64,000 nt of DNA from Patescibacteria group bacterium (GTDB lineage: Bacteria > Patescibacteriota > JABMPQ01 > JAHIRA01). The position numbers and the translations under genes are program-made. Location of the stretch: contig JAHISJ010000026.1 in assembly GCA_018818205.1 (NCBI GenBank), positions 29,994 to 93,993 of the forward strand. Reading direction: 5' to 3'. Shown here one piece after another: positions 3,309 to 60,693 of this stretch. Every line of letters starts with the position of its first letter. The stretch's first letter is position 1. A model generated the notes under the pieces. The model was given only the letters and a program-made list of their open reading frames with translations, had not been told where the DNA came from and did not search any database.

Positions 3309-4814
3309 TTATGATTTTCTAAATTTTTGTGTCGTCCAAAACCCCATTCGCTTGCCAAACATCATACGTGTCTGAGCATCAATCGCCGGAAACGATCCAA
3401 GAAAAATAGTGGTAATGGGTAAAAAGAACCACTGGAGAAACATCATGACAAATCGACCACCACCATATTTTTTGGGTCTCTCGGGAAGCAAGAACAGGTT
3501 AAGCGTTGCTGAAATAAACATACCAACCATAGAAAACGTCATCAGCCACTGAGTAATGAGTGGAAGATTTTGTGCAAGAAGTGTTGTTTTAAATGCATCT
3601 CCTCCAACAATAAGCGGCAGCCACCCTAAAATAAAAATCATAAGCGCGTTAGTCGCCCACGAGTGAAACCCTTCAATCACCCTAAATCCATGTGAGAGCT
3701 TACTTGAAAACGGAATTTTTTTATTATGTCTAAAGTTCAGAAAGATATACGGTATATTCTCACTCCCCCATGCCCATCTCCGTTGCTGCTTATACTGATT
3801 GATAATACTTTTAGAGTACGTATCGGCAAGCACGGTATCCATATATACCGGGATCAAAAGCGGCTCGGTACGGTAATTTCCATTATACCGCATAAAACAC
3901 TGCCAAAAAATATGTGAATCTTCCGACACAAAATCAGTGTCCCAAAAATCAACATCAACCAATGCCTTAAAGCTCATGCTATGTGATGAAAAGGTATAGA
4001 GTCTCTCAGGGCGTGCCTGTTCCATAAGCATCCAAAACGTGTTACTCATAGCAACAACACGCATAAGCGCCGGTGCATCCCAAAAATTATTAAAAAACAT
4101 AGGCACTGGCTGATAGCTCGCGTGCAAAGGATCGTCAGTGTTAAAGAAGACATACGTAAGTCTAGCAAAATACTCCGGATGAACACACGTATCTACATCA
4201 AGGGTTGATACCAAAATATCTTCGTACGCTATCCCCTTTTCATCAATATATTCCTTCACTCTTCTCCCCGCCCATGCTTCATTTGAGCCTTTTCCGGGGA
4301 TCTCGCCTTCAAGATCTTTTGGATGCACCGTTATCATGAAGTGATGGAATATATCTCCAAACTCGTCCTTAATAATCTGAGCATTCTTCATGCCCCGCTC
4401 CTTATCACGTTCCTCAATAGCAAGCACAACGATCATCTTCTCGTTTGAGTAATTTGAGTTCACTAGTGCCTCAAATGTTGGCCGTACAATATTTATTTCC
4501 TCTTTATATGTAGGGATAATAACAAGATGATACAGCTCGTCACATTTTTTTATGTCATGAAGCTTGGCATGCCAATCGATTTTTGTGTTCTTTTTAATTT
4601 GCTTAAACGATCTAATCAAAAATGATGCCAAGTAGACTACACGAATAAGCCAATACACGTCAAAACAAATAATAAATATTGCGACAGGAATGGGATGTGT
4701 AAAAGAAAAAATAAAACAGGCGATAATCGTTGCCCAGGAAAGAAACCCAGGCATTATCCCTAATGCTCTGTAAAAAGCTTTGTCATAGCGACCATGCACA
4801 ACAAAATTACTCAT
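3309..4814 (-). CDS. Membrane-bound family-2 (GT2) glycosyltransferase, probable processive polysaccharide synthase
   Basis: N- and C-terminal TM blocks; DxD-like motifs (LDVDT, DVDFWDTD) and the QxxRW motif (QQRRWAWG) typical of processive GT2 synthases. Confidence 0.7.
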   Translation of the reverse strand: MSNFVVHGRYDKAFYRALGIMPGFLSWATIIACFIFSFTHPIPVAIFIICFDVYWLIRVVYLASFLIRSFKQIKKNTKIDWHAKLHDIKKCDELYHLVIIPTYKEEINIVRPTFEALVNSNYSNEKMIVVLAIEERDKERGMKNAQIIKDEFGDIFHHFMITVHPKDLEGEIPGKGSNEAWAGRRVKEYIDEKGIAYEDILVSTLDVDTCVHPEYFARLTYVFFNTDDPLHASYQPVPMFFNNFWDAPALMRVVAMSNTFWMLMEQARPERLYTFSSHSMSFKALVDVDFWDTDFVSEDSHIFWQCFMRYNGNYRTEPLLIPVYMDTVLADTYSKSIINQYKQQRRWAWGSENIPYIFLNFRHNKKIPFSSKLSHGFRVIEGFHSWATNALMIFILGWLPLIVGGDAFKTTLLAQNLPLITQWLMTFSMVGMFISATLNLFLLPERPKKYGGGRFVMMFLQWFFLPITTIFLGSFPAIDAQTRMMFGKRMGFWTTQKFRKS

Positions 4815-6341: not shown

Positions 6342-6967
6342 TATTTCTCTTCGTTACTTCCTTTCAAAAAAAGATACTCATACAAAAAGACAAGTGCGAT
6401 TGAGATAAAAAGACCGCAGACAAGCCCAAAAACAAACGCAAGCAGTGGATCAACCTTTTGAGAATTCTTTATATATTCACCCGTTACAACGTCAAAAGAG
6501 TTAGTGTTTTCATCTGTGCTTTCAAGAGCTTGTACTTTTTCTGACATGACATCGCTTACCGCTGTTGCAACTTTTTCCGTTACTTCCGGATCAGCATGTT
6601 TAACTGTTACCGTAACTAAATGTGATGACTTCTGTCTCGCTTTAATACTCTTGATACGAGATTGGATTGAAGAATCATCAGATACTTGTGCGTTAGTATA
6701 AATTTCTTGCACCACATCAGGAGACGCAAGCATGCCGACAACAGTGTTTGAAACATACTCAGCTGCTTGTACTGAGTAATAATTATCGTACTGAAAATCC
6801 TCTGTTGTTTCACGATTTACTCTATGCACTGTAAGAGACATATCCACAACATGTTTTTCTGGAATAAGATATGCGGCAAAAAGCGCAACCAACGCCACAA
6901 TAAGCGTCATTGCCACTATTTGTATTTTTTTCTTGAAGATGATGTCTAAGTAGGATCGCGTGTTCAT
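6341..6967 (-). CDS. Wzz/polysaccharide co-polymerase-like chain-length determinant
   Basis: 208 aa with one N-terminal and one C-terminal TM helix flanking a hydrophilic periplasmic domain. The C-terminal TM (FVFGLVCGLFISIALVFLYEY) is Wzz-like. Located in the polysaccharide locus. Confidence 0.5.
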   Translation of the reverse strand: MNTRSYLDIIFKKKIQIVAMTLIVALVALFAAYLIPEKHVVDMSLTVHRVNRETTEDFQYDNYYSVQAAEYVSNTVVGMLASPDVVQEIYTNAQVSDDSSIQSRIKSIKARQKSSHLVTVTVKHADPEVTEKVATAVSDVMSEKVQALESTDENTNSFDVVTGEYIKNSQKVDPLLAFVFGLVCGLFISIALVFLYEYLFLKGSNEEK

Positions 6968-38155: not shown

Positions 38156-39445
38156 ATGCAACCTTCAAAAACAGCGTTCATTATAGGCTCAGGATTTTCT
38201 AAAGATCTTTGTGGACTACCTACCTTAACTGGCGAAAATAGCTTAAGTTCATTAGTTATTGAAAAACTTCAAGAACATGAAAACGAATCAGTCAAACTAT
38301 TCATTAATAGTATCTCAAGCGAAATAAAGGATAACATTGAACACTTAATGAGCTATCTTATCCAGGATAATCCATGGTCAAATGAAACAGAAAAGCACTT
38401 AGCAAAAGCCTCGTATCATGTAATTACGGATTTAATACATAAAGTACTTGATGAAAATGATCAGGAACTGAAAACTGAAGAAGAATACATTCAACAACTT
38501 TTTTCATTTTGGCACAAATATGAAACTGACGTCATTAGTTTTAATTATGATACTTTAATTGAAAAATATACTCAAAAATTCTTAAAAGTGAAAAAGGTAG
38601 AAACCCCTGAAAATAAAAGAAATGCAATAAAAACAGTACTCATAATAGCTGACGAGCATAATAAATTAGCACAAGAAAAAGAAATACATATCTATAAAAA
38701 AAACAACATACGTTATATTTACTTAAAAAATAGAAGTATAGTAACTGATGGATTGCTCTCTCAAATTCATAGTAAACTTTACGGAGAAACTGCTCCAGAA
38801 AAGTCTAGTTATATAAACCCTTTGATAAATAAGTTGAAAGAAAAAGTAACTCTCAAAGATATTTATCAGATTCCTATACCTAATGTTAATGAAAGAGTAG
38901 GAGGTCTGTGGCTAAATAGCAGTAGAAATAACTCATTAAAACTTCTAAAACTGCATGGATCAACAAACTGGCTTTATTCAGGTGACGAAAATCTTACTGG
39001 TGAAGATATTCGTCATATTCCTCTTGATCGAAAATCAAGCAAAATAAGCCTCTCTGGTCTTGTTAGGTATATTATTCCTCCAGTCTTAGATAAAAGTCCT
39101 TTTTATAAAAACAATTCTTTAAAAACCCAATGGACTAAAGCAAGAGAAGCGCTCGAAACTGCCAATGATATTATTATTATTGGATATTCTTTCCCAGAAA
39201 CAGATCTCTCAACAAGATTCATGATCCAGCAAGCACTTAAAGAAAATAAAAAAGCAACTATACATCTAGTATCTAGACCACAAAAAGTAGTAGAAGGTGG
39301 AAAAGAAAAGAAACAAACAGAAGAAGAAATACGTGAAGAATCTGCAGAAAACTTGAAGGAGTTTTTAAAACATAACCTTATAAAAGTTTATGTTCCTGAA
39401 AAAAGTTCAATAGTTGAAACTTGTAAATTGCTTAAGAAAAAATAA
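38156..39445 (+). CDS. SIR2-like (SIR2_2/DHS-like NAD-binding) family protein, candidate defense-type NADase
   Basis: N-terminal glycine-rich loop AFIIGSGFSKDLCGLPT; a central HG motif (LKLHGSTNWLY); and a C-terminal IIIIGYSFPETD motif. These are the three hallmark blocks of the SIR2_2 family. About 30% GC, clearly below its neighbours. Lies next to tRNA-Lys. Confidence 0.5.
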   Translation: MQPSKTAFIIGSGFSKDLCGLPTLTGENSLSSLVIEKLQEHENESVKLFINSISSEIKDNIEHLMSYLIQDNPWSNETEKHLAKASYHVITDLIHKVLDENDQELKTEEEYIQQLFSFWHKYETDVISFNYDTLIEKYTQKFLKVKKVETPENKRNAIKTVLIIADEHNKLAQEKEIHIYKKNNIRYIYLKNRSIVTDGLLSQIHSKLYGETAPEKSSYINPLINKLKEKVTLKDIYQIPIPNVNERVGGLWLNSSRNNSLKLLKLHGSTNWLYSGDENLTGEDIRHIPLDRKSSKISLSGLVRYIIPPVLDKSPFYKNNSLKTQWTKAREALETANDIIIIGYSFPETDLSTRFMIQQALKENKKATIHLVSRPQKVVEGGKEKKQTEEEIREESAENLKEFLKHNLIKVYVPEKSSIVETCKLLKKK

Positions 39446-39480: not shown

Positions 39481-39556
39481 TGGTGGGCGTTAAAGGATTC
39501 GAACCTTTGACCTTCTCCTTAAAAGGGAGCTGCTCTACCAACTGAGCTAAACGCCC
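39481..39556 (-). tRNA. tRNA-Lys (anticodon UUU), CCA encoded
   Basis: Minus strand reads GGGCGTTTAGCTCAGTTGGTAGAGCAGCTCCCTTTTAAGGAGAAGGTCAAAGGTTCGAATCCTTTAACGCCCACCA. It has a 7-bp acceptor stem, D arm GCTC/GAGC, anticodon loop CTTTTAA and a T arm with TTCGAAT. Confidence 0.85.
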
Positions 39557-44144: not shown

Positions 44145-44888
44145 TTAAATTAATGTAAACGAGATAAGAAGAACGAGCGACCCTCCACTGAGCAGTTTAG
44201 AAAGATAACTCACCAAAGAAATGTTTTTATCGTAACGCATTCTCTTTGGTCCAAGCACCGCAATCACACCATGTTCACCATTTGGCAATTCAAACTCTGA
44301 AATCAGCAGGGAACATTTGTTCATCTCTGAAACGGGGTTTTCTGAACCAATGAATGTCTGTACCTGCCGCTCCTTTGGCTTATGGTCAAGTAAAACATCT
44401 ACCGTATCTTCAAATTGATCAAGTGCCTCACACACAGACGCAACTTCCCTTTTATCCTCAAACTCAGGCTGATCCAAGAGCTTTTGAAGCCCTGACGTTG
44501 CGTACTCTTCTTGCTCTTTGATTCCTGACACCACCATGCTTTGTGAGTGCAAAGATAGAAGCTTTGCCGTAACACGCGCAAGCCGCTTGTATTGAGCCTG
44601 CAATTTTAAGAGATCTGACTGAAGTTTAACTTGATCTTCTTTGGAAAGCGATTTGCCTTCCATAAGTAAGTTCACATAATACCGATATCCTTTGTCAGTT
44701 GGCACACGCCCCGCCGAAGTGTGAGGCTGGTAAATATACCCTTCCTTCTCTAACGCTGACATCTCATTTCTCACCGTTGCCGGCGAACAATCGAGTTTTT
44801 CAGCAAGCATCTTAGACCCTACTGGTAACGCAGTTTTTACGTAATATTCGATAATATAATGTAAAATTGTTTCTTGCCGAGTGGTCAT
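44145..44888 (-). CDS. hrcA: Heat-inducible transcription repressor HrcA
   Basis: MTTRQETILHYIIEYYVKTALPVGSKMLAEKLDCSPATVRNEMSALEKEGYI.. wHTH N-terminus. Start placed at the Met downstream of the CIRCE element. Confidence 0.85.
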   Translation of the reverse strand: MTTRQETILHYIIEYYVKTALPVGSKMLAEKLDCSPATVRNEMSALEKEGYIYQPHTSAGRVPTDKGYRYYVNLLMEGKSLSKEDQVKLQSDLLKLQAQYKRLARVTAKLLSLHSQSMVVSGIKEQEEYATSGLQKLLDQPEFEDKREVASVCEALDQFEDTVDVLLDHKPKERQVQTFIGSENPVSEMNKCSLLISEFELPNGEHGVIAVLGPKRMRYDKNISLVSYLSKLLSGGSLVLLISFTLI

Positions 44889-44897
44889 ATTAGTGAC

Positions 44898-44924
44898 TTG
44901 GCACTCCTCTACCGAGAGTGCTAA
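44898..44924 (-). promoter_or_regulatory. CIRCE operator (HrcA binding site) in the hrcA promoter
   Basis: Plus strand TTGGCACTC-CTCTACCGA-GAGTGCTAA; minus strand TTAGCACTC-N9-GAGTGCCAA. Matches the CIRCE consensus TTAGCACTC-N9-GAGTGCTAA with one mismatch. Confidence 0.8.
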
Positions 44925-44971
44925 TTTCATAGTAGCGTGTTCTGCTTATTTGTCAAGTGTGGATGAAATAA

Positions 44972-45000
44972 GTCAAAAGACTTGACAAAACAAAATATAT
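44972..45000 (+). promoter_or_regulatory. Near-consensus sigma70 promoter P1 (TTGACA-N17-TATAAA with extended -10 TG) for gene A
   Basis: CTTGACAAAACAAAATATATGATGTATAAAG. The -35 forms an inverted repeat with an upstream TTGTCAAG. Confidence 0.6.
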
Positions 45001-45068
45001 GATGTATAAAGTAAGGCACATTTCGTGCGTTTCATATATGTTCATTTTTCAAAAGGAGAGGAAAATTG

Positions 45069-45659
45069 ATGAAATTCAATTTCCGATTTTTATTGATTAG
45101 CATATTCTTCGTAGGCCTCATTGTAGTGACCTTCTCTGGATGTAAAGACAAATCCAGTTTTGATTTGAAACCCTTTGCAAAGGGTTACAAACATCGTTTA
45201 AAGGTCATCACCAAATTGACATACGCCAAAGTTATTTACGAACTTGGCAAATCCACTGAAAATGAATTTGTAAATTATCCGTGGAGCAGCAGACTTCTTG
45301 TTAAAAGCTTAAAGCGGGACTTCGCCCATGGTGGACGCAGAATTATGAGTCTTGAACGCCTCGGCACACGCCTTGGTGGAGTTATTGAATACTTAAGAAG
45401 AGATTCCAGAACAAAACATATTTTGCAGCCATTACTTTGGAATCTTTACAAAATGCGTGACAAGGCGTATTACACTTACGACAATGCAAAATTCTGGAAA
45501 GAGTTTGATACATTCAAGAAAAAATTTCTCTCATTCAAACAATGCTTTCATGATAGATTTTGTAAAGCAAACCAACTTTGTTGTGTCAATTTAATCTGCA
45601 TTGAAAAAAAATACTTTCCAGGCTACAGAAAGCCTGCATCGAGACCGGTCAAGAAATAA
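45069..45659 (+). CDS. Basic lipoprotein-like hypothetical protein (gene A)
   Basis: SD AAGGAGAGG 8 nt before the ATG. Signal peptide MKFNFRFLLISIFFVGLIVVTFSGC with Cys at a lipobox-like position. 196 aa, K/R-rich. Confidence 0.5.
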   Translation: MKFNFRFLLISIFFVGLIVVTFSGCKDKSSFDLKPFAKGYKHRLKVITKLTYAKVIYELGKSTENEFVNYPWSSRLLVKSLKRDFAHGGRRIMSLERLGTRLGGVIEYLRRDSRTKHILQPLLWNLYKMRDKAYYTYDNAKFWKEFDTFKKKFLSFKQCFHDRFCKANQLCCVNLICIEKKYFPGYRKPASRPVKK

Positions 45660-45694
45660 GACTGGTCATAAATTGTACAAAAATTAATTGTACA

Positions 45695-45860
45695 GACTCC
45701 CCTTCTACCAGCTTGGTGGATAGGGGTTTTTGTTTTGGGAAATTCTTACCCCCTCCCCTTTACTAAGGGGAGGGTTAGGGTGGGGTTCTTTCTACGCTAT
45801 ACTTACATACACCCCCTCCTAACCTCCCCCTTGGAAAAGGGGGAGGGACCATAACAAATC
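45695..45860 (+). repeat. Inter-cassette repeat unit R1: terminator hairpin with T-run, then GC-rich spacer with two hairpins
   Basis: ACTCCCC..GGGGTTTTTGTTTTGG terminator; then CCTCCCC-TTTACTAA-GGGGAGG and CCTCCCCC-TTGGAAAA-GGGGGAGG hairpins. About 85% identical to R2 over roughly 110 nt. Confidence 0.65.
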
Positions 45861-45862
45861 AC

Positions 45863-45890
45863 TTGACAAAACAAAACATATAGTGTATAA
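45863..45890 (+). promoter_or_regulatory. Sigma70 promoter P2 (TTGACA-N17-TATAAA) with a leader about 90% identical to P1
   Basis: CACTTGACAAAACAAAACATATAGTGTATAAAGTAAGGCAC, followed by a conserved leader and SD AAGGAG. Confidence 0.6.
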
Positions 45891-45939
45891 AGTAAGGCAC
45901 TTATTGTGCATTCACACGTTCTTTTTCAAGGAGTGAAAA

Positions 45940-46320
45940 ATGAAAAATACTCTAAAAAAAATTATTGAGCTTATTGCAGTGATAATTCTTGGAATTCCAG
46001 CAGTTATCATTTTGTTTTTGGCATTAATCGCTTACTATGGTTTGACCATTGGAATTATTCCGTACGGCATTTGCATTGCTACTTCTAACTATATTACTGC
46101 AAATCCCATTATTATTGGCTTTATGGCTATGTGTGGCATCCTTCTTGAACTATTGTTTTTTGTAGTATACAAAGGCGAATTCTACGAACCCTCAGGTAAT
46201 CACCACAGTGCGTATTGGAAAAATGGCACTGCAGAATTTATCTGGGAAGCTTATTTTTGGATTCCAAGTAGATTGGATGATCTGTTTTGTTGGCTTTCTG
46301 ACAGGAAGGAGAAAACATGA
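45940..46320 (+). CDS. Small polytopic membrane protein (gene B), hypothetical
   Basis: 126 aa, 3-4 TM helices, W/Y-rich C-terminal tail. The stop overlaps the gene C start (ATGA). Confidence 0.5.
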   Translation: MKNTLKKIIELIAVIILGIPAVIILFLALIAYYGLTIGIIPYGICIATSNYITANPIIIGFMAMCGILLELLFFVVYKGEFYEPSGNHHSAYWKNGTAEFIWEAYFWIPSRLDDLFCWLSDRKEKT

Positions 46321-46589
46321 ACAAACTAATACTAGCAACTATCGTACTTATTCTGTCCATTCATTCTATGTTTTGTGACAAAAAACCACAATTCGACCAA
46401 AAAACATTGTCAAGTAGCAAAAAAATTAATTATTCCAAAGTTAAAAAGGTGAAACCTAAAATTAAGCCAACGTCATTGCCTTCAAATAGTTATCACAAAA
46501 AAGAATGTGACGATGACTGCGATTGCCCCGAATCAAAACCCTATTGTTTGGAACATGATTGCGTGAAGGATAAGCCTGAACGCAAATAA
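46317..46589 (+). CDS. Small secreted Cys-rich protein (gene C), hypothetical
   Basis: Signal peptide MNKLILATIVLILSIHSMFC. K-rich middle. C-terminal six-Cys cluster CDDDCDCPESKPYCLEHDC. Confidence 0.5.
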   Translation: MNKLILATIVLILSIHSMFCDKKPQFDQKTLSSSKKINYSKVKKVKPKIKPTSLPSNSYHKKECDDDCDCPESKPYCLEHDCVKDKPERK

Positions 46590-46624
46590 GTTCAAAAAAG
46601 AATTGAAAAACGATTAACACGAGA

Positions 46625-46800
46625 GACTCCCATCTGCCACCGGCGGATTGGGAGTTTTATTTTGGAAAAAATATATGGACATATAGAACGGTCCCCTCCC
46701 CTTTACTAAGGGAAGGGTTAGGTTGGGGTTCTTTTTTGTATCACACACCATACACCCCCTCCTAACCTCCCCCTTGGAAAAGGGGGAGGAATAACCCCAA
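46625..46800 (+). repeat. Inter-cassette repeat unit R2
   Basis: Terminator ACTCCCATCTGCCACCGGCGGATTGGGAGTTTTATTTTGG, then the same two GC-rich hairpins as R1. Confidence 0.65.
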
Positions 46801-46805
46801 AAAAC

Positions 46806-46834
46806 TTGACAAAACCAAATATTACATGTATTAT
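46806..46834 (+). promoter_or_regulatory. Sigma70 promoter P3 (TTGACA-N17-TATTAT)
   Basis: CTTGACAAAACCAAATATTACATGTATTATG. Downstream SD AGGAGGAAAAGG precedes the GTG/ATG region of gene D. Confidence 0.55.
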
Positions 46835-46873
46835 GATTAGCTTTAATTGTTATTTCCAAAATAGGAGGAAAAG

Positions 46874-47428
46874 GTGAAAAAACTCGTTTTTTTATCATTT
46901 TTTTTATTTGTATTCTGTTCAAACGCCATTGCTGAAAATCACCAATTGACCAAATGGCATGTTAGTATTGGAAACAGCTTTCTTCTTGATGACGCACTGA
47001 GAGTGTATACGCTTGTTGGACTTAAAGCATCGTTTGGCTACTCGTGGGAGCGCTTCAGCACCGAACTTGAGATTACTTGGGCAGCTCCCCCCAATGAACA
47101 AATTACCAGACACGGTCTTACTTTAGAGATTCCCTTTCTCTTCTACGCATTTCGATACGAAACGGCGAAGCAACTATTTCACGTTCGTACCGGTATAAGC
47201 GTCATCGGAGGGTTAGGAATTACCAGCAGAGTTAAAACCGGAAGCGTGGGGATGTCGCTGCTCATTGGCGACGTTGGATTCAGCATAGTAAAGATTGGTA
47301 AAGGATTTCTTATGTGGAGAACACAGCTTGGGTATAGTCCCATTGAGTTTGCTTTCCACACAAGTGGTTTGATTGTATTAGCACTATTTAGAATTGACCT
47401 TCACTTCTCACTGGAATACCGGTGGTAA
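46874..47428 (+). CDS. Secreted beta-barrel-like protein (gene D), OmpA/OmpW-like 8-strand outer-membrane-barrel signature
   Basis: Signal peptide MKKLVFLSFFLFVFCSNAIA. Alternating hydrophobic beta-strand pattern. C-terminal aromatic ...HFSLEYRW typical of a beta-signal. Confidence 0.45.
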   Translation: MKKLVFLSFFLFVFCSNAIAENHQLTKWHVSIGNSFLLDDALRVYTLVGLKASFGYSWERFSTELEITWAAPPNEQITRHGLTLEIPFLFYAFRYETAKQLFHVRTGISVIGGLGITSRVKTGSVGMSLLIGDVGFSIVKIGKGFLMWRTQLGYSPIEFAFHTSGLIVLALFRIDLHFSLEYRW

Positions 47429-47551
47429 GAATATAACAATAATTTCGGCAGCACGCTCCATTAGAGCCTCGCTGTCTTTTTTTGTTTAAAACAGCGTATT
47501 GCCACTCTTAAATTTACACATACAAAATAGAGTAACCTAAATCAAAAAACC

Positions 47552-47580
47552 TTGACAAATATATAATAGTATGCTATAAT
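47552..47580 (+). promoter_or_regulatory. Consensus sigma70 promoter P4 (TTGACA-N17-TATAAT)
   Basis: CCTTGACAAATATATAATAGTATGCTATAATG. No ORF of 60 aa or more within the next roughly 450 nt. Confidence 0.6.
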
Positions 47581-47783
47581 GTTCTCGCTAAAGATCACTA
47601 TGTGTTCTTAGCGTATTACACCATGATTTACATCATGTCTGTTTAACCCTCCGGACTTCTCTCCTCCTTTCTTCTTTATTACTGAACCAATTGTTTTGTT
47701 TCTTGGTTGTTTGAGCAAAACTCAAATAACTAAACGTACAAAAGAATTGCACCTAGCATACTTTTTGGAGGACTAAAGAATAC

Positions 47784-47841
47784 GTGTCTTGGCGACCTGT
47801 GGCCTTGTGGTGATCCACAAGTCTACAGTTTGCCAAGACAC
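47784..47841 (+). ncRNA. Stable stem-loop in the P4 leader transcript (possible regulatory RNA structure)
   Basis: GTGTCTTGGC...GCCAAGACAC 10-bp outer stem enclosing an inner CTTGTGG-TGAT-CCACAAG hairpin. Confidence 0.35.
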
Positions 47842-47869
47842 AGACCCGACAAGTAAACGGAGGTGACCC

Positions 47870-48049
47870 TTGTCATTATTATCAAACGCCATTTTCTTTT
47901 TTGTTGCATTACTTCAATTCGCTGGCGGGCTTACCACAACGGTAACCTGCTTCCGAGATCCGCTTTATCGCAATCTCGGGATCGAGGACATACGTTTCTC
48001 GATAGCGTTGATACGTTTTAGTATTGCGACTCTAGGAAATGATGGGTAG
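47870..48049 (+). CDS. Putative small hydrophobic peptide (59 aa, TTG start), below the ORF-track cutoff
   Basis: SD GGAGGTGA 7 nt upstream of TTG. Both the SD and the start sit in a GACAAG/CTTGTC hairpin. Translates to MSLLSNAIFFFVALLQFAGGLTTTVTCF... The stop overlaps the gene E start. Confidence 0.25.
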   Translation: MSLLSNAIFFFVALLQFAGGLTTTVTCFRDPLYRNLGIEDIRFSIALIRFSIATLGNDG

Positions 48050-48284
48050 GCTGATATACATCATTATTTACATCACCCCTACCCCTGCAACCCTGGCATA
48101 CACTTTTGTGGTGAATGACAGAGTCAGCAGTGTATACAAAGGAGATATTGTGGGAGTTGCAATGATAATCCTCGGCTGCATGTATATGCGGCACGAGGTT
48201 TTGTGGGGAGTATTCATTGCCGTATTTGGCACAGTAGTACTCTTCGGAGAAGGTTTTTGTATTAAAGACCTTCTCCAAAAATAA
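48039..48284 (+). CDS. Small membrane protein (gene E), hypothetical
   Basis: 81 aa with two hydrophobic segments; followed by terminator AACCATCCTAGCTTGTACGGTCAGGATGGTTCTTTTTTTG. Confidence 0.4.
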   Translation: MMGRLIYIIIYITPTPATLAYTFVVNDRVSSVYKGDIVGVAMIILGCMYMRHEVLWGVFIAVFGTVVLFGEGFCIKDLLQK

Positions 48285-48353
48285 TGTCCCTCACAACAAA
48301 AACCATCCTAGCTTGTACGGTCAGGATGGTTCTTTTTTTGTTTATATTTCTCG

Positions 48354-51300
48354 CTATCCCTTCTTAAGCCCAATATCTTCCTTGACTAGCCCCTTCTCAC
48401 CCCCATGAATAGGAACCTTACCCTCAGGAAAGCTAAACCCTTCACGTTTTGGAATAAGCACATAATCGTCATCTCCCACCAAAAAGCCATATCGTCCATC
48501 TGAGTTGGTAACTCTGGCCATGAGAATCCTCCCAAACCGTGGCTCAAAGAGTCTAACTATTACTTTAGAAAGAGTGTAGTTGGTATCAGTATCATAGGTA
48601 TGTCCCCAAGGCTTTGCAATCTTACGAGCGGCAAGCCGTCTAAAGAGAAAGAATAATAGAATGTGAACTACAAATAGGACTGCGGTAAACCACGACGGTG
48701 CAAGCACCAATGCAATAAGCCCCAGAAGTGGACCAAGGAATGAAAACACAAAAGAGATCTTGCGAGCCCTGTCTGCACGTACCATGCGCTTGTCCTCAAT
48801 CGCGATCTCTTCCTTTGAAAGTGTCTGCATGTCCTGCATGGTCGTGACACTCGTTTTAATTGGTTTTCTATACTTATCATCCAAAAATGCCATACCCTGC
48901 GCCGGATCTATTGGTACATCAAAAGCAATGATTCCATCCGTGGTAGACTTTTCATTAACATCAAAACTAAAGATCTCTCCGTTATATACCCGCTTACCCC
49001 CATGCACCGATTTACTGTTAGTGTGAGAAGGAAACGTAAACCCATCCCTAGTTACGGTCATGTAGTAGGCTTTCCCCTTTTCAGCCAAAAAGTAATATCG
49101 TCCCTTTGCATCCGTGACTGATGACTCGAGTAACTTCCCGGTTTCTTTGTCAAAAAGCCTCACAATAGCTAGATCAAGAGGTTCATCTGTCAGCGAATTA
49201 TAAACTGATCCCCACTTTCTCCTGCCTTTGACCGCAAAGAACCTAAATGGCTCGCTAAAGAGTTGTGCAAGGTATTTTAAATACGGAAAAAGTGTCTGAG
49301 CGACTGACACGGATGCAAGAATATTGGTCAATGCGACAAGAGCGGTAAGCGGCACCAATCCTGCATCAACAGCTCTCTTCACTGACTCATTTTGCCAGAC
49401 CGGTTCAAAAAATGCCGCAACAAATCCTTTTTCTTCTACTTGCGGCTCGTCAATGAGTATCTCCTCTTTTTTGTCCTCTACTATTACCTCTTTCTTATCA
49501 TCCTTTTTGTCCTCAACAATGATCTCTGTTTTATCTTCAATAATCACGTCATCCTTTTTGTCCTCTACCGTATCCTCAATAACTTCAATGATCTCAACTG
49601 GTGGCTCCTCAATCGGGGTGATTGGTGTCACTTGAGGAACTTTAGGACCACCAAGAATACCTCTTACAACCGGAGGAACAACACGACTAATAATCCTAGT
49701 TTTTGCCGCATACCCAAATTTCGCTCCATTATATGCGATAAGACTCGTCTTTAAAACGACCTGCCCGGGGTTCCTTTTGGTTGTTGGTTCATAGTTAGAA
49801 AGCGCCTGTGACCCTTCATCAACCGAGACCATATAAAATCCTGCAGACATACCGTACACATCAAACGTTCCTATTCTGCCGGTAGCTCCCGTAAACGCAA
49901 GCGTATCACCAACATCTATTTTGCCATCATGGTTGTTGTCATTATATACACGGACAGTTACACCAGAGATACCTCCCTCGCCTTGATTTTGAACACCATT
50001 TTTATTGATGTCATTAAATACAAGGCCGGAGATACTCCCTTGTGCCCGTACTGTATTTTGAATCGTATTAGAACGTGCACCTAGTCTCCCAGGATTATAC
50101 GCACCTGCTGCACGACTATCTATTACATCCCCATCAAACGCTGTGTTACTCACTAACACCTTAAAGCTGAATGTTCCCTTCTCACCCACCTTAAGCGACC
50201 CAATATCAAAATAGACATTATTTTTCATAGTAACGCTATAGTCACCTTGATCAACGTCCTTTCTGTCACTAATAGCTCGCCCGTTATACATAAGTGAACC
50301 GGAAATATACGAGGTATGCCCCGGAATGCTGTCAGAAATGTAGAACCCAAACGCATCGCCTGAACCGATATTCTCATACGCAACTTCATACAAGAGTTCA
50401 TCTCCTGGTTTTACATCACCATTGCCAAATGTGCCTGAGGTTGCGGTCATGGTTTTTGTAAGAGTAACAACCGGTCCCGTCGATAAAATAGCGTAGAGCT
50501 CAGTGTGCACTGTCTCCTGATTTCCCGCCCTATCTATAGAGAAATATTTGAGTGTCGCTCCTCGACTAATTGTAAAGGGGGCATTATAACGCAATGAATG
50601 TACCGTTGGTGTTGAATTGTCAAGTGTATAATACGTGGCATCACACCCAGAGCCACCGGGATCTTGGCAGATAAGCGTAACGGATACGGGATTTTGGTAG
50701 TTGCCGCCTGCAGGAGAAACGGTTGTAGTTGGAGGAGTTTTATCTTGATTAACCAACACAAAAACAGGAGATGATACAAACGCGCCATTTGTCCCGGAAA
50801 AACCGCGTATGCGCACCTGTGTATTTGGTGCATTAATAAACGGTTCATTAAGCACAGAATCCCATATTGTTGTCACCGCGTTTTTGCCCGATGCGGTAGT
50901 AACATAGCCAGATGAGTTCCCTATTTGGTTTGTATTGTTGTTGTCTACTTTAGGATCACCGGTTGTTGCCGAGGTGTTTGCATCAACAGTGCTGATTGTC
51001 GCTTTACCAAAAGCACCGCCAACTGAATACTCAACGTACGCCTCTGTGTCTGCTGCGTTGTCTTCTGTTTCAACATCAAAGCTAATATCAACGTAGCCGC
51101 TACCACCCTGCCGCTCGCTTGCAGTGAGATTTGAAATAGTTGGTGCTAAACTCGGATACACTAGCGCGCTTGTTCCTACAAATCTAGAAATACTAAAAAG
51201 GGTAACACTTTTGTAAGTAATGGCATCGAGCACGCCTGAATTATCCGATGCACTTGCATCGTTAAACACATCATTAAAGCCGTTAGTATTTTGCTGGGCA

Positions 51301-52277
51301 TACACACCACCGGATTTTGATACAAATAGCTGAGCTCCATCCGTGCTGTTATCACCCGTCACATAAAACAAATCGTTCCTTTCTCCAAAGGTTGAAATTG
51401 AAGTGACACCGGCACTTGCCCCAACGTTCACGAGTGCATATTGCCCTGCACCAGACGCCGTTTGAGACTTACGTACTTCTCCCCCATTAACGTTGCTCGT
51501 ACCTACATACAATTCATTATTATGTACATATAATGCGGTTACTCGACCGTTGTTCACATCGCCAAATCCATCATTATTTACCTGCGCCCAACCTGTACCA
51601 TTGTTTGTTCTGTGAAGCTCACCGCCGGTTGCCAAATTAGTTGTACCAACATATAGATAAGAATTAAAGACAGCCATGGATCGAGGCCAATTGTTACTTG
51701 CATCGCCAAAACCATTATTGACGACTTTAGTAAACGACGTTCCAGTATTGGTTCGCCAAATCTGAAATCCGGCAACATTGTTAAAGGTGCCCACATAGAG
51801 ATACCCGTTAAACACTTCCATGTTGTACATGCGTAGATTTGCAGCCTCACCAAAACCATCCCCGCCTACCTGTGACCAACTGGATCCGTCAGATGTACGC
51901 CACACCTCTCCAGGATCAACCTCTTTACCCGTTCCAAGATACAAAAAACCATCGTACACTTTCATGGAATGACACGAAGAATTGCTCACCTCACCAAATC
52001 CTCCACTTAAAACCTTACTCCACGTAAGTGCGTCAGTGCTCTTCCAAACCTGCACACCACCGGAATTTGACGTACACGCATACAAATCACCGTTAAACTC
52101 TGCCATGGCACCAGCATCTAAATTTCCTGCTTCACCAAAACCTGCGCTGCCTGACTCGAAAAAGGGATACGCTGCATGTGCACTATACGCAACAAAAAAC
52201 ATACACACAAAAATCGCAAAACTAATAAGCGATGTGTAGATTAACGAAAAGTATTTTTTGTTTGATTTAGTACGCAC
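48354..52277 (-). CDS. Giant (1307 aa) cell-surface adhesin-like protein
   Basis: Signal/TM N-terminus. About 7 beta-propeller-type repeats (GFGDxxN...FNGYLYVGT...W). A DUF11-type conserved repeat domain, an SdrD/Cna-B-type domain, and an acidic K/E/D linker. C-terminal region with TM helices and two carboxypeptidase-regulatory-like domains. Confidence 0.6.
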   Translation of the reverse strand: MRTKSNKKYFSLIYTSLISFAIFVCMFFVAYSAHAAYPFFESGSAGFGEAGNLDAGAMAEFNGDLYACTSNSGGVQVWKSTDALTWSKVLSGGFGEVSNSSCHSMKVYDGFLYLGTGKEVDPGEVWRTSDGSSWSQVGGDGFGEAANLRMYNMEVFNGYLYVGTFNNVAGFQIWRTNTGTSFTKVVNNGFGDASNNWPRSMAVFNSYLYVGTTNLATGGELHRTNNGTGWAQVNNDGFGDVNNGRVTALYVHNNELYVGTSNVNGGEVRKSQTASGAGQYALVNVGASAGVTSISTFGERNDLFYVTGDNSTDGAQLFVSKSGGVYAQQNTNGFNDVFNDASASDNSGVLDAITYKSVTLFSISRFVGTSALVYPSLAPTISNLTASERQGGSGYVDISFDVETEDNAADTEAYVEYSVGGAFGKATISTVDANTSATTGDPKVDNNNTNQIGNSSGYVTTASGKNAVTTIWDSVLNEPFINAPNTQVRIRGFSGTNGAFVSSPVFVLVNQDKTPPTTTVSPAGGNYQNPVSVTLICQDPGGSGCDATYYTLDNSTPTVHSLRYNAPFTISRGATLKYFSIDRAGNQETVHTELYAILSTGPVVTLTKTMTATSGTFGNGDVKPGDELLYEVAYENIGSGDAFGFYISDSIPGHTSYISGSLMYNGRAISDRKDVDQGDYSVTMKNNVYFDIGSLKVGEKGTFSFKVLVSNTAFDGDVIDSRAAGAYNPGRLGARSNTIQNTVRAQGSISGLVFNDINKNGVQNQGEGGISGVTVRVYNDNNHDGKIDVGDTLAFTGATGRIGTFDVYGMSAGFYMVSVDEGSQALSNYEPTTKRNPGQVVLKTSLIAYNGAKFGYAAKTRIISRVVPPVVRGILGGPKVPQVTPITPIEEPPVEIIEVIEDTVEDKKDDVIIEDKTEIIVEDKKDDKKEVIVEDKKEEILIDEPQVEEKGFVAAFFEPVWQNESVKRAVDAGLVPLTALVALTNILASVSVAQTLFPYLKYLAQLFSEPFRFFAVKGRRKWGSVYNSLTDEPLDLAIVRLFDKETGKLLESSVTDAKGRYYFLAEKGKAYYMTVTRDGFTFPSHTNSKSVHGGKRVYNGEIFSFDVNEKSTTDGIIAFDVPIDPAQGMAFLDDKYRKPIKTSVTTMQDMQTLSKEEIAIEDKRMVRADRARKISFVFSFLGPLLGLIALVLAPSWFTAVLFVVHILLFFLFRRLAARKIAKPWGHTYDTDTNYTLSKVIVRLFEPRFGRILMARVTNSDGRYGFLVGDDDYVLIPKREGFSFPEGKVPIHGGEKGLVKEDIGLKKG

Positions 52278-58542: not shown

Positions 58543-60693
58543 ATGGTTCATATTGTAAACAAAAAGTTAATACTCGGTGAACAAAAAAACACGAAGGCTT
58601 TTTCTACGTGTCTTGAACTTACTGAATCGAGTCTTGAGAAGAGGCTTGGCCTTTCGTACCTTATTTTGGAAGCGCATGTTGAACCTGAGACTGCAGAAAA
58701 AATAACCGACATTCTAAGGGACGTGTTCCAAAACGAGTATTACAAGAAGGATTCCCATGCAAACACAATAGGCAACGTATCCATTGGGTCAATGTTTGAG
58801 CATGCAATTTCCAGGGTCAATAAAGCCCTACACGCTCTCCTCGCAGAAGGCTACCTAAAAGCTGATACTACATTAAATGCATGTATTATCGGAATAAAGA
58901 ATACAGAGATACACTTGGTGTCTACCGGAAAGGCAAAAGCATATCTGATCAGAAATGACTCAATGCTTGAACTCACAGAAGAAGATACAAAGATGTCAGG
59001 TAAAAAATATTTTTCGCATATTATTAGTGGTGCTGTAGAAATTGGTGACGTTTTGTTCTTTTCTACGCCAGAATTTTTGAATTTTGTTTCTACGGAAAAA
59101 ATAAAACGTACGCTAAAAACAAAAACACTCGATGAAGCCAGAGAAGAGCTTAAAGAACTCATTGAAGACACTGACTTTTCTGCACCAATCGCAAGTCTGT
59201 TTCTTGAAGTAAAATCAAACATCAAGCCCGTGAGTGAAGCAAAACAAACACCTTTTCTCCCTCCAGAAAGAGAGAAACAGAAGCCATACACGTATCCATC
59301 ACTAGGTGATGATAAAGCGAGTACGAATGATTTGCCAGAGCATGAACACGCAAAAGATGGGAAAGACCCGTTGGCAGCTGCAAAAAAGTCTGCATCTATT
59401 ATCACCGCAAAGATTAAAGATACTTTTTCTCTTAAACCATCAAAAAAAAGATCTGTAGAGACAGGTTTGAAACCCGTCTCTACAGATCTCTCAACCAAAA
59501 AGTACACCGACCCTGCTACTGGCACAGAGCCTGCCTCCCCTGCCAAAAAAATTGCGAGTGGTGTTGCAAAAAAAGCAACAAGCTTTCTCCCAGACAGAAA
59601 CAAACAAAAAACGTATATTTTTCTGGCGATTGTTCTGATCATCATATTTCTTGTAGCAGTTACATACTTTATATTTGCAAGAAAAGAAAAGAGTCAGACT
59701 GAAATTCAAACAAACTATATTTCTGAAATTCAAGAAAAAGAAAAAAAGGCTGCCGACGCAATTATCTACAGAGATTATGACCAAGCAGAAAAACTCTTAA
59801 ACGACGCAACTGAAATAATCAACACTCAGTTAGACGAAGAACAAAAAATATCGAGTGAAATCAAATCACTCGAATCAAAAATCAGTGAACACTACGACAC
59901 TGTTAATAGAATCCAGAGAATAACACCGGAAAAGGTTGCTTCATTTGGTGGCAATGCATATGAGACACTCATGGGTTCAAAGGATACACTCTATTCCTCC
60001 TCAAACAAAGATATAGGAGTATACAGATTTATCCCCGAATCTAAAAAATTTGAAGAGTTTAGTCAGAAGGTTGAAGGCATAACTAAACTTGCGCTTGGAA
60101 CGTTTAATGACCAAAAAAATACGGTCGTTTTCTTGACACCAAATGGAATAGCAGAAATGGCAGTATTCTCACGGCACCTCAAAAAGCTTGCCTCTGAGTT
60201 TCCGGAAAGCAACCACAACTTCGTTGATATGGCCGTTTACTCGGATAAAATTTATCTGCTTGATACTGCGAACAATCAGATATATAGGATGGTGAGAACC
60301 GTTGATGGCTACAGCGTTGCAAAGGAATGGGTTACTGACGAATCAGTATCACTGCAAGACGCAACCTCGCTTGCAATCGACTCAAATGTCTATGTTCTCA
60401 AGAAAAACGGTACAATCCTAAAGTTTCTAAGCGGCCAAGTAGAACCATTTACTATGGATGAGCTTCAAAGTCCGCTATCAGAAGATACGGTACTCTTTAC
60501 CTCGTCTGATGTAGAAAATTTGTACATACTTGATAAAGAACATAACACAGTTATTGAGATCACTAAGAAAGGAAAGGTGGTAAACCAGTTTGTCATGTCA
60601 CTTGATTCAACGCCTAAAGACATCTATGTTGATCCTGATTCCAAGAAAATATACGTCTTGACCGAAGACGGCCTCTACACAGTATCCAAATAA
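58543..60693 (+). CDS. Membrane protein with an N-terminal PP2C-like (possibly catalytically degenerate) domain and a C-terminal extracytoplasmic beta-rich domain
   Basis: PP2C-like blocks (ACIIGIKNTEIHLVSTGKAKAYLIRNDSMLELTEED; GDVLFFSTPEFLNFV) with the canonical GDSR Asp replaced. TM TYIFLAIVLIIIFLVAVTYFIFA. Low-complexity linker carrying a strong hairpin. Confidence 0.4.
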   Translation: MVHIVNKKLILGEQKNTKAFSTCLELTESSLEKRLGLSYLILEAHVEPETAEKITDILRDVFQNEYYKKDSHANTIGNVSIGSMFEHAISRVNKALHALLAEGYLKADTTLNACIIGIKNTEIHLVSTGKAKAYLIRNDSMLELTEEDTKMSGKKYFSHIISGAVEIGDVLFFSTPEFLNFVSTEKIKRTLKTKTLDEAREELKELIEDTDFSAPIASLFLEVKSNIKPVSEAKQTPFLPPEREKQKPYTYPSLGDDKASTNDLPEHEHAKDGKDPLAAAKKSASIITAKIKDTFSLKPSKKRSVETGLKPVSTDLSTKKYTDPATGTEPASPAKKIASGVAKKATSFLPDRNKQKTYIFLAIVLIIIFLVAVTYFIFARKEKSQTEIQTNYISEIQEKEKKAADAIIYRDYDQAEKLLNDATEIINTQLDEEQKISSEIKSLESKISEHYDTVNRIQRITPEKVASFGGNAYETLMGSKDTLYSSSNKDIGVYRFIPESKKFEEFSQKVEGITKLALGTFNDQKNTVVFLTPNGIAEMAVFSRHLKKLASEFPESNHNFVDMAVYSDKIYLLDTANNQIYRMVRTVDGYSVAKEWVTDESVSLQDATSLAIDSNVYVLKKNGTILKFLSGQVEPFTMDELQSPLSEDTVLFTSSDVENLYILDKEHNTVIEITKKGKVVNQFVMSLDSTPKDIYVDPDSKKIYVLTEDGLYTVSK

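Follow-up and report, generated by a model that had tools for sequence, protein, structure and literature searches.

A probable recombination-prone islet with a duplicated intergenic block and BoxC-type palindromes in a Patescibacteria genome

Results

Organization of the locus

We analyzed a 3.4-kb stretch within a 64-kb window, that is, the whole stretch of DNA studied here. The region is probably a lineage-specific, recombination-prone islet with a duplicated intergenic block, whose GC-rich palindromes are BoxC-type pairs. Below we establish its anatomy, its internal homologies, the class of its GC-rich elements and its variability between relatives. The genome belongs to Patescibacteria and has about 40% GC, and the stretch carries lineage-specific genes of small secreted or membrane proteins. 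Conserved anchors bound it on both sides, the hrcA-grpE-dnaK-dnaJ operon on one and a giant surface protein gene (48354-52277, - strand) on the other; a Mur ligase gene and a PBP gene also flank it. The islet genes lie on the + strand and nearly all neighbouring genes on the opposite one. We distinguished four independent sigma-70 transcription units, each with its own predicted promoter, Shine-Dalgarno (SD) sequence and intrinsic terminator. Triplex-motif units lie downstream of a terminator and ahead of the promoter that follows. The modular order proposed in the initial annotation (promoter, leader, unrelated cargo gene, terminator, GC-rich spacer) was thus observed.

Four sigma-70-type promoters had been claimed, and we located all of them by their hexamers, each with a 17-nt spacer (-35 starts at 44982, 45863, 46806 and 47552, + strand). 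The P1 promoter-leader module (44974-45068; -35 TTGACA 44982-44987, -10 TATAAA 45005-45010, SD AAGGAGAGG) is divergent from the hrcA promoter and CIRCE operator and has a small 5' hairpin at about 45016-45028. P2 covers 45855-45939 (-35 at 45863-45868, -10 TATAAA 45886-45891, SD AAGGAG), and P3 covers 46798-46873 (-35 46806-46811, -10 TATTAT 46829-46834, SD AGGAGGAAAAGG) and leads to a GTG start. P4 (47552-47580, TTGACA-17-TGcTATAAT, 12/12 with extended TG) is not homologous to P1-P3 and has nothing beyond the consensus hexamers in common with them.

The cargo proteins are mutually unrelated, small, secreted or membrane ORFans, as had been proposed, and none of ORF1-6 matched a family in Pfam or NCBIfam. 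All are encoded on the + strand. ORF1 (45069-45659, KKH43_06270) is a basic, lipoprotein-like ORFan of 196 aa with a signal peptide ending in FSGC and a Cys-rich C-terminus; its only homologue was a 100%-identical JGI twin, and its AF2 model (pLDDT 43) was not interpretable. ORF2 (45940-46320, 126 aa) is hydrophobic over its long N-terminal two-thirds and may have the 3-4 TM segments first proposed; its stop overlaps the start of ORF3 (ATGA), a basic, Cys-rich secreted peptide of 90 aa (46317-46589). ORF4 (46874-47428, 184 aa) is an ORFan with a signal peptide, and its sole match among 1.84 billion representatives was a 99% twin. It had been described as beta-barrel-like, and a beta-rich or barrel fold was not confirmed (pLDDT 33). 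ORF5 and ORF6 (47870-48284) are small hydrophobic peptides. ORF5 (59 aa, TTG start) was absent from all databases and is doubtful, and ORF6 (81 aa) is annotated as KKH43_06290.

In front of ORF5 lies a long, highly structured leader or candidate ncRNA (47587-47869, + strand), in which a 27-bp hairpin (47784-47841) and a long-range helix over the ORF5 SD are predicted. Its minimum free energy was -100.5 kcal/mol, compared with -60.6 +/- 4.6 in shuffles (z = -8.6; - strand, z = -5.7). It had no match in Rfam at E <= 10.

The four strong intrinsic terminators claimed, all on the + strand, fold well. T1 (45692-45735) consists of a hairpin and a T-run (fold 45692-45733, -21.6 kcal/mol, z = -4.1) and is homologous to T2 (46623-46660; fold 46623-46658, -23.6 kcal/mol, z = -5.1); between the two the sequence has changed, yet the hairpins are kept. 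T3 (47447-47488; -14.4 kcal/mol, z = -3.3) is not followed by a triplex-motif pair at its junction with P4. T4 (48292-48345) is an inverted repeat and faces the giant surface protein gene at its 3' end.

A duplicated intergenic block

The intergenic region between ORF1 and ORF2 is homologous over its whole length to that between ORF3 and ORF4, through terminator, GC palindrome, promoter and leader (45660-45939 and 46590-46873; 70% over 300 columns, from stop codon to start codon). These direct repeats, 943 bp apart, lie on either side of the ORF2-ORF3 unit. An extra promoter-leader copy stands alone in front of ORF1. These parts are all that P1 shares with P2; P1 has no GC pair.

An alignment of the P1 and P2 promoter-leader segments gave 78% identity in 96 columns with gaps (84% in 58 without), below the 90% over about 85 nt given initially; P2 and P3 are 63% identical. 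An nhmmer profile of P1-P3 run across the 64-kb window recovered P1 (E = 2e-22) and P3 (E = 4e-15), and its matches were P1-P3 alone, not P4. The description of four units built from repeated parts therefore stands for three promoters and two spacers and not for four complete units, since P1 shares only promoter and leader and P4 only hexamers. In proper alignment the GC element held its similarity at 85%, while the promoter similarity was lower than claimed.

A "hyper-consensus" promoter is no special mark of the locus. Matches of 11-12/12 to TTGACA-N16-18-TATAAT also lie upstream of several other window genes, including the RNase P RNA gene. Near-consensus hexamers thus stand before many genes of the window, and the P1-P3 module was found in it only at P1-P3.

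The GC-rich palindromes are paired triplex units

The GC-rich element at 45750-45846 and that at 46693-46789 align over 108 columns with 85% identity, in agreement with the figure first proposed, and each is predicted to fold into a hairpin about 100 nt long (-58 and -52 kcal/mol). Shuffled sequence gave no such match (0/100). A search for further copies returned no third copy of the GC-rich element within the 64-kb window.

Each element consists of two inverted units. R1-left (45750-45785, + strand) reads CCCCTCCCC / TTTACTAA / GGGGAGGG / TTA / GGGTGGGG, has a perfect 8-triad purine-motif register and is also a canonical G4 motif. R1-right (45811-45846), read on the - strand, is CCTCCCCC / TTTTCCAA / GGGGGAGG / TTA / GGAGGGGG; it matched a profile of cross-phylum units (nhmmer E = 1e-8) and forms with R1-left a 97-nt imperfect palindrome. 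R2-left (46693-46728, + strand; GGGAAGGG / TTA / GGTTGGGG) is degenerate, as two substitutions relative to R1-left break two triads, and R2-right (46754-46789, - strand) is identical to R1-right (36/36). By direct reading, the layout C-stem, loop, G-stem, TTA, G-stem is common to 4/4 units, and three of the four have the perfect 8-triad register (seven C-G*G and one T-A*T or T-A*A).

Between the copies the units match at 70/72 positions, whereas identity is 64% in the flanks and the central spacer has diverged (P = 1.4e-11). Their loops are also identical, more than structure alone would demand, and gene conversion or a protein that binds them may play a part. Both pairs are placed alike, about 16 nt after the terminator T-run and about 16 nt before the -35 box.

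When genomes were scanned with half a unit, more than 120 loci were found in many phyla, including Patescibacteria. The unspecified 5' flank was CCCCC in 96-98% of 131 hits, and the base after it was A in 69, T in 58, C in 4 and G in 0; opposite an A-T pair the triad rule demands A or T. Judged by sequence, the GC-rich spacers are inverted pairs of intrastrand-triplex units of the BoxC / PIT / TMECO type. They are not specific to this locus, since repeats of this class are found in many bacteria, in intergenic positions beside genes of every kind.

Repeats called BoxC, PIT (potential intrastrand triplex) or TMECO are known from E. coli and elsewhere among bacteria (Holder et al. 2015, PMC4666352, where earlier studies by Bachellier et al. 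and Hoyne et al. are cited). Every TMECO locus is intergenic, inverted pairs are frequent, and rearrangement between E. coli strains is far commoner at these loci than at control sites (PMC4666352). The islet units match the E. coli yihR-yihS copy CCCCTCGCCCCTTTGGGGAGAGGGTTAGGGAGAGGGG. They share with TMECO the three-block layout (C-stem, loop, G-stem, 3-nt loop, G-stem), the type A loop 2 (TTA), a reverse-Hoogsteen register that is perfect in three of the four units, a strictly intergenic position in inverted pairs making a long palindrome, variability of the locus between relatives and the lack of a tied mobility gene. They fall outside the strict pattern, in which stems are 9 nt and the loop 3-6 nt (PMC4666352), as their stems are 8 nt and their first loop is 8 nt. 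The islet pairs are type A with type A, whereas those of E. coli are type A with type B. The host also differs, being a Patescibacteria genome of about 40% GC, while the hosts reported for TMECO are proteobacteria, with other triplex motifs known from cyanobacteria and Thermus (PMC4666352).

Likeness to REP elements was also considered. REP, BIME and REPIN elements with RAYT transposases are short, GC-rich, palindromic, species-specific units with a conserved tail. Like the islet pairs, they are intergenic, often inverted doublets and frequently lie just after genes; unlike them, they do not share a unit sequence across phyla. We found no Y1 (RAYT) gene among the window ORFs scanned. In a relative, a Y1 transposase gene is flanked by other hairpins (CTCCAGGC...GCCTGGAG).

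Variability of the locus in relatives

We compared the locus with its counterparts in relatives, where the stretch from hrcA to the giant surface protein gene differed completely. Relatives with HrcA about 60% identical keep hrcA and a giant surface protein homologue (45-50% identity), and between these anchors they have a phosphoglycerate mutase gene and an unrelated Cys/Lys-rich secreted ORF of 223 aa. Neither triplex units nor the promoter module were present at this locus in those relatives. In a sister population (contig L003), the P2 module is abutted at 45856/45857, 6 nt upstream of the P2 -35 box, by an IS481-like element, beyond which lies foreign sequence. This element has inverted repeats of its own, and no other mobile element was found nearby. 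No target-site duplication was found at the locus.

Neisseria minimal mobile elements are strain-variable islets with conserved flanks that are exchanged by homologous recombination. The islet resembles them in its conserved flanks (hrcA and the giant surface protein gene), its wholly different content in relatives and its lack of a dedicated recombinase, although our comparison covers one distant relative set and one IS-disrupted variant.

Discussion

The whole block might be a non-autonomous mobile element, like Correia/NEMIS or promoter-carrying MITEs, inserted twice and giving its neighbours expression signals. End-to-end homology of the block, its terminator and strong predicted promoter, the joining of the promoter module to three unrelated genes and the breaking of assemblies at the repeat would fit this. 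We nevertheless consider it quite improbable, as direct reading revealed neither target-site duplication nor terminal inverted repeats around the block, the flanks of the GC pairs have diverged by about 35% with units nearly identical, unlike two recent insertions, and P1 stands without a GC pair in a 64-kb window holding no further copy. An exact 29-mer of the GC unit had 0 hits in JGI metagenome contigs, and the promoter pattern had five in unrelated JGI contigs, with likeness confined to 29-42 nt around the promoter. Alternatively, the GC-rich pairs could be selected in place to insulate strong transcription units from one another, for example as supercoil sinks, cruciform barriers or back-up 3'-end stabilisers; their conservation would then stem from this function rather than from one in rearrangement. 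Their common position, the conservation of units over flanks and the very stable RNA/DNA hairpin speak for this. It is an unlikely explanation, as the T3-P4 junction lacks such an element, PIT elements were inactive as promoters and terminators and did not affect polymerases in vivo (work cited in PMC4666352), and in E. coli no pattern is seen in the distance to neighbouring genes (PMC4666352). Such a function could coexist with the best explanation.

The initial annotation had likened the locus to an integron-like cassette array. Such an array, or another site-specific one, would use the pairs as recombination sites and a recombinase encoded elsewhere, and would fit the modular series of unrelated cargo genes with imperfect palindromes between them. 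Locus content differs between relatives, and the pair has GTTAGG...CCTAAC, which recalls attC core sites. We rejected the attC reading, as the order of the core-like motifs is inverted (attC has RYYYAAC outside-left and GTTRRRY outside-right) and they lie inside the palindrome, not at cassette boundaries. No integrase was found among the flanking genes or in a scan of ten other window ORFs, each unit carries a predicted promoter and terminator of its own, and the motif class occurs singly beside all kinds of genes across phyla, outside arrays. Since the GC-rich spacers are repeats of a known class, arranged as inverted pairs, the locus is not an integron; the palindrome is not a recombinase site, and a cassette array of any kind is very improbable.

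In our preferred reading, duplication of one block of terminator, GC palindrome, promoter and leader would have produced the repeated parts. It may have occurred by homologous or illegitimate recombination, for example unequal crossing-over; Campbell-type integration of a circle carrying ORF2-ORF3 and one intergenic copy would be another example. A link between the triplex motif and instability is suggested here by one IS insertion and one distant comparison, and may be correlative, as it is even in E. coli.

In summary, the triplex- or cruciform-forming pairs would not act as promoters or terminators and may promote rearrangements of this islet, as reported for E. coli. Co-regulation of its genes through the promoter block shared by P1-P3 is possible.

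Organization of the islet and its promoters

The islet (44940-48345) is bordered on the left by the hrcA-grpE-dnaK-dnaJ operon, encoded on the - strand, and on the right by the gene for a giant surface protein of 1307 aa with CHB_HEX_C, SdrD-B and DUF11 domains, beyond which we found tRNA-Glu, Mur ligase and PBP genes. The hrcA leader contains a CIRCE-like inverted repeat, TTGGCACTC-N9-GAGTGCTAA, at approximately 44898-44924, and this CIRCE-type operator together with the hrcA promoter fixes the left boundary of the islet. The hrcA promoter stands back to back with P1, the first islet promoter, with the -35 boxes approximately 25 nt apart, which is an ordinary arrangement. The closest relatives of HrcA were 60-64% identical, and Moranbacteria-like sequences were near 50%. 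GC content of the window is approximately 40% and nearly all its genes lie on the - strand; the six islet ORFs (ORF1-ORF6) lie on the + strand, and GC skew is close to zero there. According to exact protein look-ups, the islet genes carry the annotation hypothetical protein (KKH43_06270 to 06290).

The initial annotation was confirmed in its placement of the promoters and terminators, four of each, and of the two GC-rich elements, and every predicted transcription unit has a near-consensus promoter and an intrinsic terminator to itself. Alignment revealed that the intergenic regions 45660-45939 (ORF1 to ORF2) and 46590-46873 (ORF3 to ORF4) are homologous from stop codon to start codon (70% identity over 300 columns). 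Identity between the two copies was 66% in the part containing the 3' UTR and terminator, 85% in the GC element (R1, 45750-45846, compared with R2, 46693-46789) and 63% in the promoter and leader (P2 compared with P3). The duplicated block thus flanks ORF2-ORF3 as direct repeats 943 bp apart. Promoter and leader of P1 and P2, for which approximately 90% identity had been claimed, were less similar (78% over 96 columns; 84% over 58 ungapped columns). Promoter-leader similarity was concentrated between -45 and +10. P4 (-35 box starting at 47552), which had been counted among the repeated parts, is a perfect extended -10 promoter, but we observed no homology between it and the other promoters.

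A profile of P1-P3 matched those three sites alone in 64 kb, and a profile of the GC units matched the two pairs alone, both in the islet; the halves of the GC element were absent from all 100 shuffles. Near-consensus promoters as such do not set the islet apart, since 11-12/12 matches also precede the RNase P RNA gene and several other genes of the window. In the metagenome scan, the exact 29-mer of the right triplex unit gave 0 matches, and a degenerate promoter pattern identified five contigs with unrelated contexts, in which similarity to the window was limited to 29-42 nt around the promoter.

Elsewhere in the window we observed an ORF of 429 aa with a SIR2_2 domain (38156-39442, +), encoded on the strand opposite to its neighbours. 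It adjoins tRNA-Lys (39481-39556), within the kilobase of lowest GC content in the window (0.30), and may have been acquired as a gene of defence type. Within a long + strand ORF without Pfam match (58543-60693) we found a perfect palindrome of 20 bp with a T-run after it (59446-59492, -); either this ORF may be miscalled or a mobile hairpin may be present there.

Triplex-type units in the GC-rich spacers

Each GC-rich spacer is a 97-nt imperfect palindrome composed of two units in inverted orientation, left (+) and right (-). The units consist of three blocks, namely a C-rich stem, G-rich stem 1 and G-rich stem 2, as is characteristic of triplex-type repeats. In such units stem 1 can form Watson-Crick pairs with the C-stem and antiparallel purine-motif triads (C-G*G, T-A*T or T-A*A) with stem 2. 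The left unit of R1 reads CCCCTCCCC (C-stem), TTTACTAA (first loop), GGGGAGGG (stem 1), TTA (second loop) and GGGTGGGG (stem 2). The right units of R1 and R2 are the same and read, in this order, CCTCCCCC, TTTTCCAA, GGGGGAGG, TTA and GGAGGGGG. Purine-motif triads were allowed at 8/8 positions in R1-left, R1-right and R2-right, and two substitutions break two triads in R2-left. Folding of the units was computed for Watson-Crick pairing alone. The second loop was TTA in 4/4 units, and the C-rich tail and the C-stem form a mirror repeat. Both pairs are intergenic and lie between a terminator and the next promoter. The left units are canonical G-quadruplex motifs too (GGGGAGGGTTAGGGTGGGG).

Repeats of this design were described in E. 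coli as BoxC, renamed PIT elements and later TMECO (Holder et al. 2015, PMC4666352). The TMECO pattern is CCCTCNCCC-N3-6-GGGNGAGGG-N3-GGGNGAGGG, with 9-nt stems, a first loop of 3-6 nt and a second loop of 3 nt, which is TTA in type A and CCG in type B; TMECO repeats are intergenic without exception and frequently form inverted pairs (PMC4666352). The islet units share with them the three-block layout, the TTA loop and the intergenic inverted pairs. However, their stems are of 8 nt and their first loop is of 8 nt (TTTACTAA, TTTTCCAA), so the strict TMECO pattern does not describe them. Because of these lengths we placed them in the broader triplex class, and on sequence grounds the GC-rich spacer belongs to the BoxC/PIT/TMECO type as a relative of strict TMECO. 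A published E. coli copy from the yihR-yihS spacer, read directly, contains CCCCTCGCCCCTTTGGGGAGAGGGTTAGGGAGAGGGG. The GC element gave no BLAST match in E. coli genomes, as the query is short and of low complexity, and a literature search by sequence strings returned human PCR primers only.

We further compared the two copies of each unit. The four units were identical at 70/72 positions between R1 and R2, loops included, whereas identity in the flanks of the GC pairs was 64% and the 25 nt that separate the units had diverged (P = 1.4e-11 for unit identity under flank-like divergence). This difference argues that the triplex units are kept constant by selection or gene conversion. Two recent insertions would not account for this pattern, since divergence in the spacer within the palindrome equals that of the flanks.

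Distribution of triplex-type units among bacterial phyla

A genome-wide scan with the pattern CCTAACCTCCCCC-N3-10-GGGGGAGG identified at least 120 loci. The matches listed include Alpha-, Beta-, Gamma- and Deltaproteobacteria, Chloroflexota, Nitrospirota, Planctomycetota, Bacteroidota, Spirochaetota, Acidobacteriota and Omnitrophota, as well as Doudnabacteria, Uhrbacteria and Saccharibacteria of the Patescibacteria. Many matches have a partner unit of like design. The class extends well beyond Proteobacteria and Cyanobacteria.

In the 131 matches listed, the five bases upstream of the pattern, unspecified in it, were C in 96-98%. The next base, which faces an A-T pair, was A in 69, T in 58, C in 4 and G in 0 of these related units, that is, A or T in 97%. 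The purine motif predicts this choice, and the rule offers comparative support for constraint at the level of the triplex, beyond the hairpin alone.

In Doudnabacteria (L117, approximately 3908-3990) a pair of triplex-type units lies within a putative stop-free frame of 371 codons, and in Saccharibacteria (L098, approximately 6698-6790, reverse-strand numbering) within a putative one of 361 codons; these pairs recall the in-frame palindromic elements of Rickettsia. The Dehalococcoidia chromosome OZ241913.1 (loci L084, L013, L119 and L041) carries the hairpin unit in tandem-like arrays, with copies spaced 175-205 bp apart, and at many sites along its length. Here the motif is used differently, in high copy number.

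Islet proteins and the predicted P4 RNA

None of ORF1-ORF6 matched Pfam or NCBIfam. For ORF4, a search of 5.8 billion proteins and a full HMMER pass over 1.84 billion representatives gave a single match, a 99% identical twin, and the sole match of ORF1 was likewise a twin, 100% identical and from JGI. The claim that the cargo proteins are mutually unrelated was borne out, and no paralogue of them was found in the window. Paralogy among them, including the Cys-rich tails of ORF1 and ORF3, was not significant (z below 2). Single-sequence AlphaFold models, built without alignment, were uninformative (pLDDT 33 for ORF4 and 43 for ORF1), so the "beta-barrel" label given to ORF4 is unsupported. Signal peptides, strong and correctly spaced SD sequences, promoters and terminators argue that most of ORF1-ORF6 are real genes. 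ORF5, which has a TTG start and was found in no database, is doubtful.

The distance from the P4 start site to ORF5 is 283 nt (47587-47869, +). The minimum free energy of this stretch was -100.5 kcal/mol, compared with -60.6 +/- 4.6 for shuffles (z -8.6; z -5.7 for the - strand). The predicted structure comprises a 27-bp hairpin (47784-47841) and a long-range helix over the SD of ORF5. With E <= 10 in 44800-48500, no Rfam family matched the P4 stretch and there were just chance microRNA-like matches on palindromes; at the gathering threshold, Rfam identified RNase P RNA and two tRNAs only in the whole window. No homologue of the P4 RNA was found in the loci of the relatives. The RNA may act as a leader that regulates the small hydrophobic peptides, much as in type I toxin mRNAs, or it may represent a separate ncRNA gene.

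Variation of the locus in relatives and in a sister population

In one relative (L131, a 75-kb contig, HrcA 61% identical) the hrcA operon and a homologue of the giant surface protein (45-50% identity) were kept. The space between these anchors is occupied by a phosphoglycerate mutase gene and, divergent from hrcA, by an unrelated secreted ORF of 223 aa that is rich in Cys and Lys; ORF1-ORF6, triplex units and the promoter module are all absent. Another relative (L132, L133) had yet another arrangement. These differences indicate that the interval is a variable slot between conserved anchors, tending toward small secreted basic or Cys-rich proteins.

In the second relative a gene for Y1 transposase (PF01797) lies between dnaK and dnaJ (L133 4653-5201; L132 5028-5588). 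REP-like hairpins, CTCCAGGC-N4-GCCTGGAG, stand on both sides of it, which makes a RAYT-like arrangement in Patescibacteria. A RAYT system has a cognate Y1 transposase gene, usually with the system's own REP units on either side. The hairpins around the gene in this relative are unrelated to the triplex units and no Y1 (RAYT) gene was found among the window ORFs scanned; we saw no REP/REPIN-RAYT link in the window ORFs and relatives covered.

On a contig of a sister population (L003, JAHJIP010000158.1), P2, ORF2 and the beginning of ORF3 are present with 99.8% identity to the window. To the left of 45857, in window numbering, the contig sequence differs and represents a 1427-bp IS481-like element (L003 300-1726) with imperfect terminal inverted repeats. 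The element abuts the P2 module 6 nt upstream of the -35 box, with 10 nt between this point and the end of the right triplex unit. It was 100% identical in two other sequencing runs (L135, L136), with different flanks. L003 is better described as an IS481-like insertion abutting P2 than as the ORF2 module set in new surroundings. On its far side the element adjoins sequence that does not come from the window, which implies an additional rearrangement. This single break, where the GC pair borders on the promoter, fits a fragile or frequently hit site. The right end of the element lies 5-6 nt upstream of a -35 hexamer in the two readable contexts, TTGACA (P2, L003) and TTGACT (L135), which hints at a preference for insertion just upstream of promoters.

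Origin of the arrangement

As read from sequence signals and comparisons, the islet consists of independent transcription units, its BoxC-class units are under constraint and the locus is variable. The layout would be explained if the intergenic block had been duplicated by homologous or illegitimate recombination. Either unequal crossing-over or Campbell-type integration of a circle with ORF2-ORF3 and one intergenic copy would fit it, and the promoter-leader would have been copied once more, ahead of ORF1. Pairs predicted to form a triplex or cruciform may favour such recombination, as proposed for E. coli, and the direct repeats could now delete or amplify ORF2-ORF3. Among E. coli strains, TMECO loci are rearranged far more than control sites, and the repeats had no mobility gene nearby (PMC4666352).

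The initial annotation had proposed, as one of two readings, that the islet resembles an integron-like cassette array. The observation behind it was real though overstated, and the cassette interpretation is supported in part; its integron version fails in three defining respects, the adjacent integrase gene, the attC architecture and the promoterless cassettes. In integrons the intI tyrosine recombinase gene and attI adjoin the array, and the cassettes are mostly promoterless and depend on a common promoter. We found no integrase domain in the flanking genes (hrcA-grpE-dnaK-dnaJ, giant surface protein, Mur ligase and PBP) or in ten other window ORFs scanned, a subset of the ORFs, and every unit of the islet carries a near-consensus promoter and intrinsic terminator. 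The outer core sites of attC, RYYYAAC ... GTTRRRY, belong to an imperfect palindrome at the 3' ends of cassettes. Here the motifs are in the order GTTAGG ... CCTAAC and lie inside the palindrome, where they are the loop-2 regions of two triplex units. A promoter-carrying mobile block, Correia-like or MITE, would have terminal inverted repeats, a target-site duplication and dispersed copies with common boundaries; it is opposed by the finding that no target-site duplication flanks the GC pair or the whole block, and that no further copies were seen in the window or metagenome scans. An insulator role of the GC-rich pairs would be compatible with their position between terminator and promoter; the E. 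coli work, as far as it is cited in PMC4666352, found neither promoter nor terminator activity of PIT elements and argues against such a role.

We consider it very improbable that promoter-leader-ORFan-terminator units are shuffled as cassettes without an integrase, recombining at the triplex pairs and the shared promoter module. Such shuffling has some room, given the direct repeats on either side of ORF2-ORF3, the fusion of the same promoter to three unrelated genes and the break in the sister population, which falls exactly at the boundary of GC pair and promoter. If it was true, an episymbiont with a tiny genome would have a dedicated way to swap surface or effector genes, strongly expressed and beside a conserved anchor. 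With duplication of the intergenic block as the preferred reading, the apparent new cassette system comes down to a known non-B-DNA repeat class and an ordinary variable islet. The GC-rich spacer belongs to an already described class, and the locus adds one more case of known kinds. For annotation, duplicated intergenic blocks can mimic cassette arrays.

In summary, BoxC/PIT-type units are now seen in Patescibacteria and many other phyla, which gives the class a wider range. The islet is a slot beside hrcA where lineage-specific secreted and membrane ORFans gather behind strong promoters, and these ORFans are candidates for host interaction.
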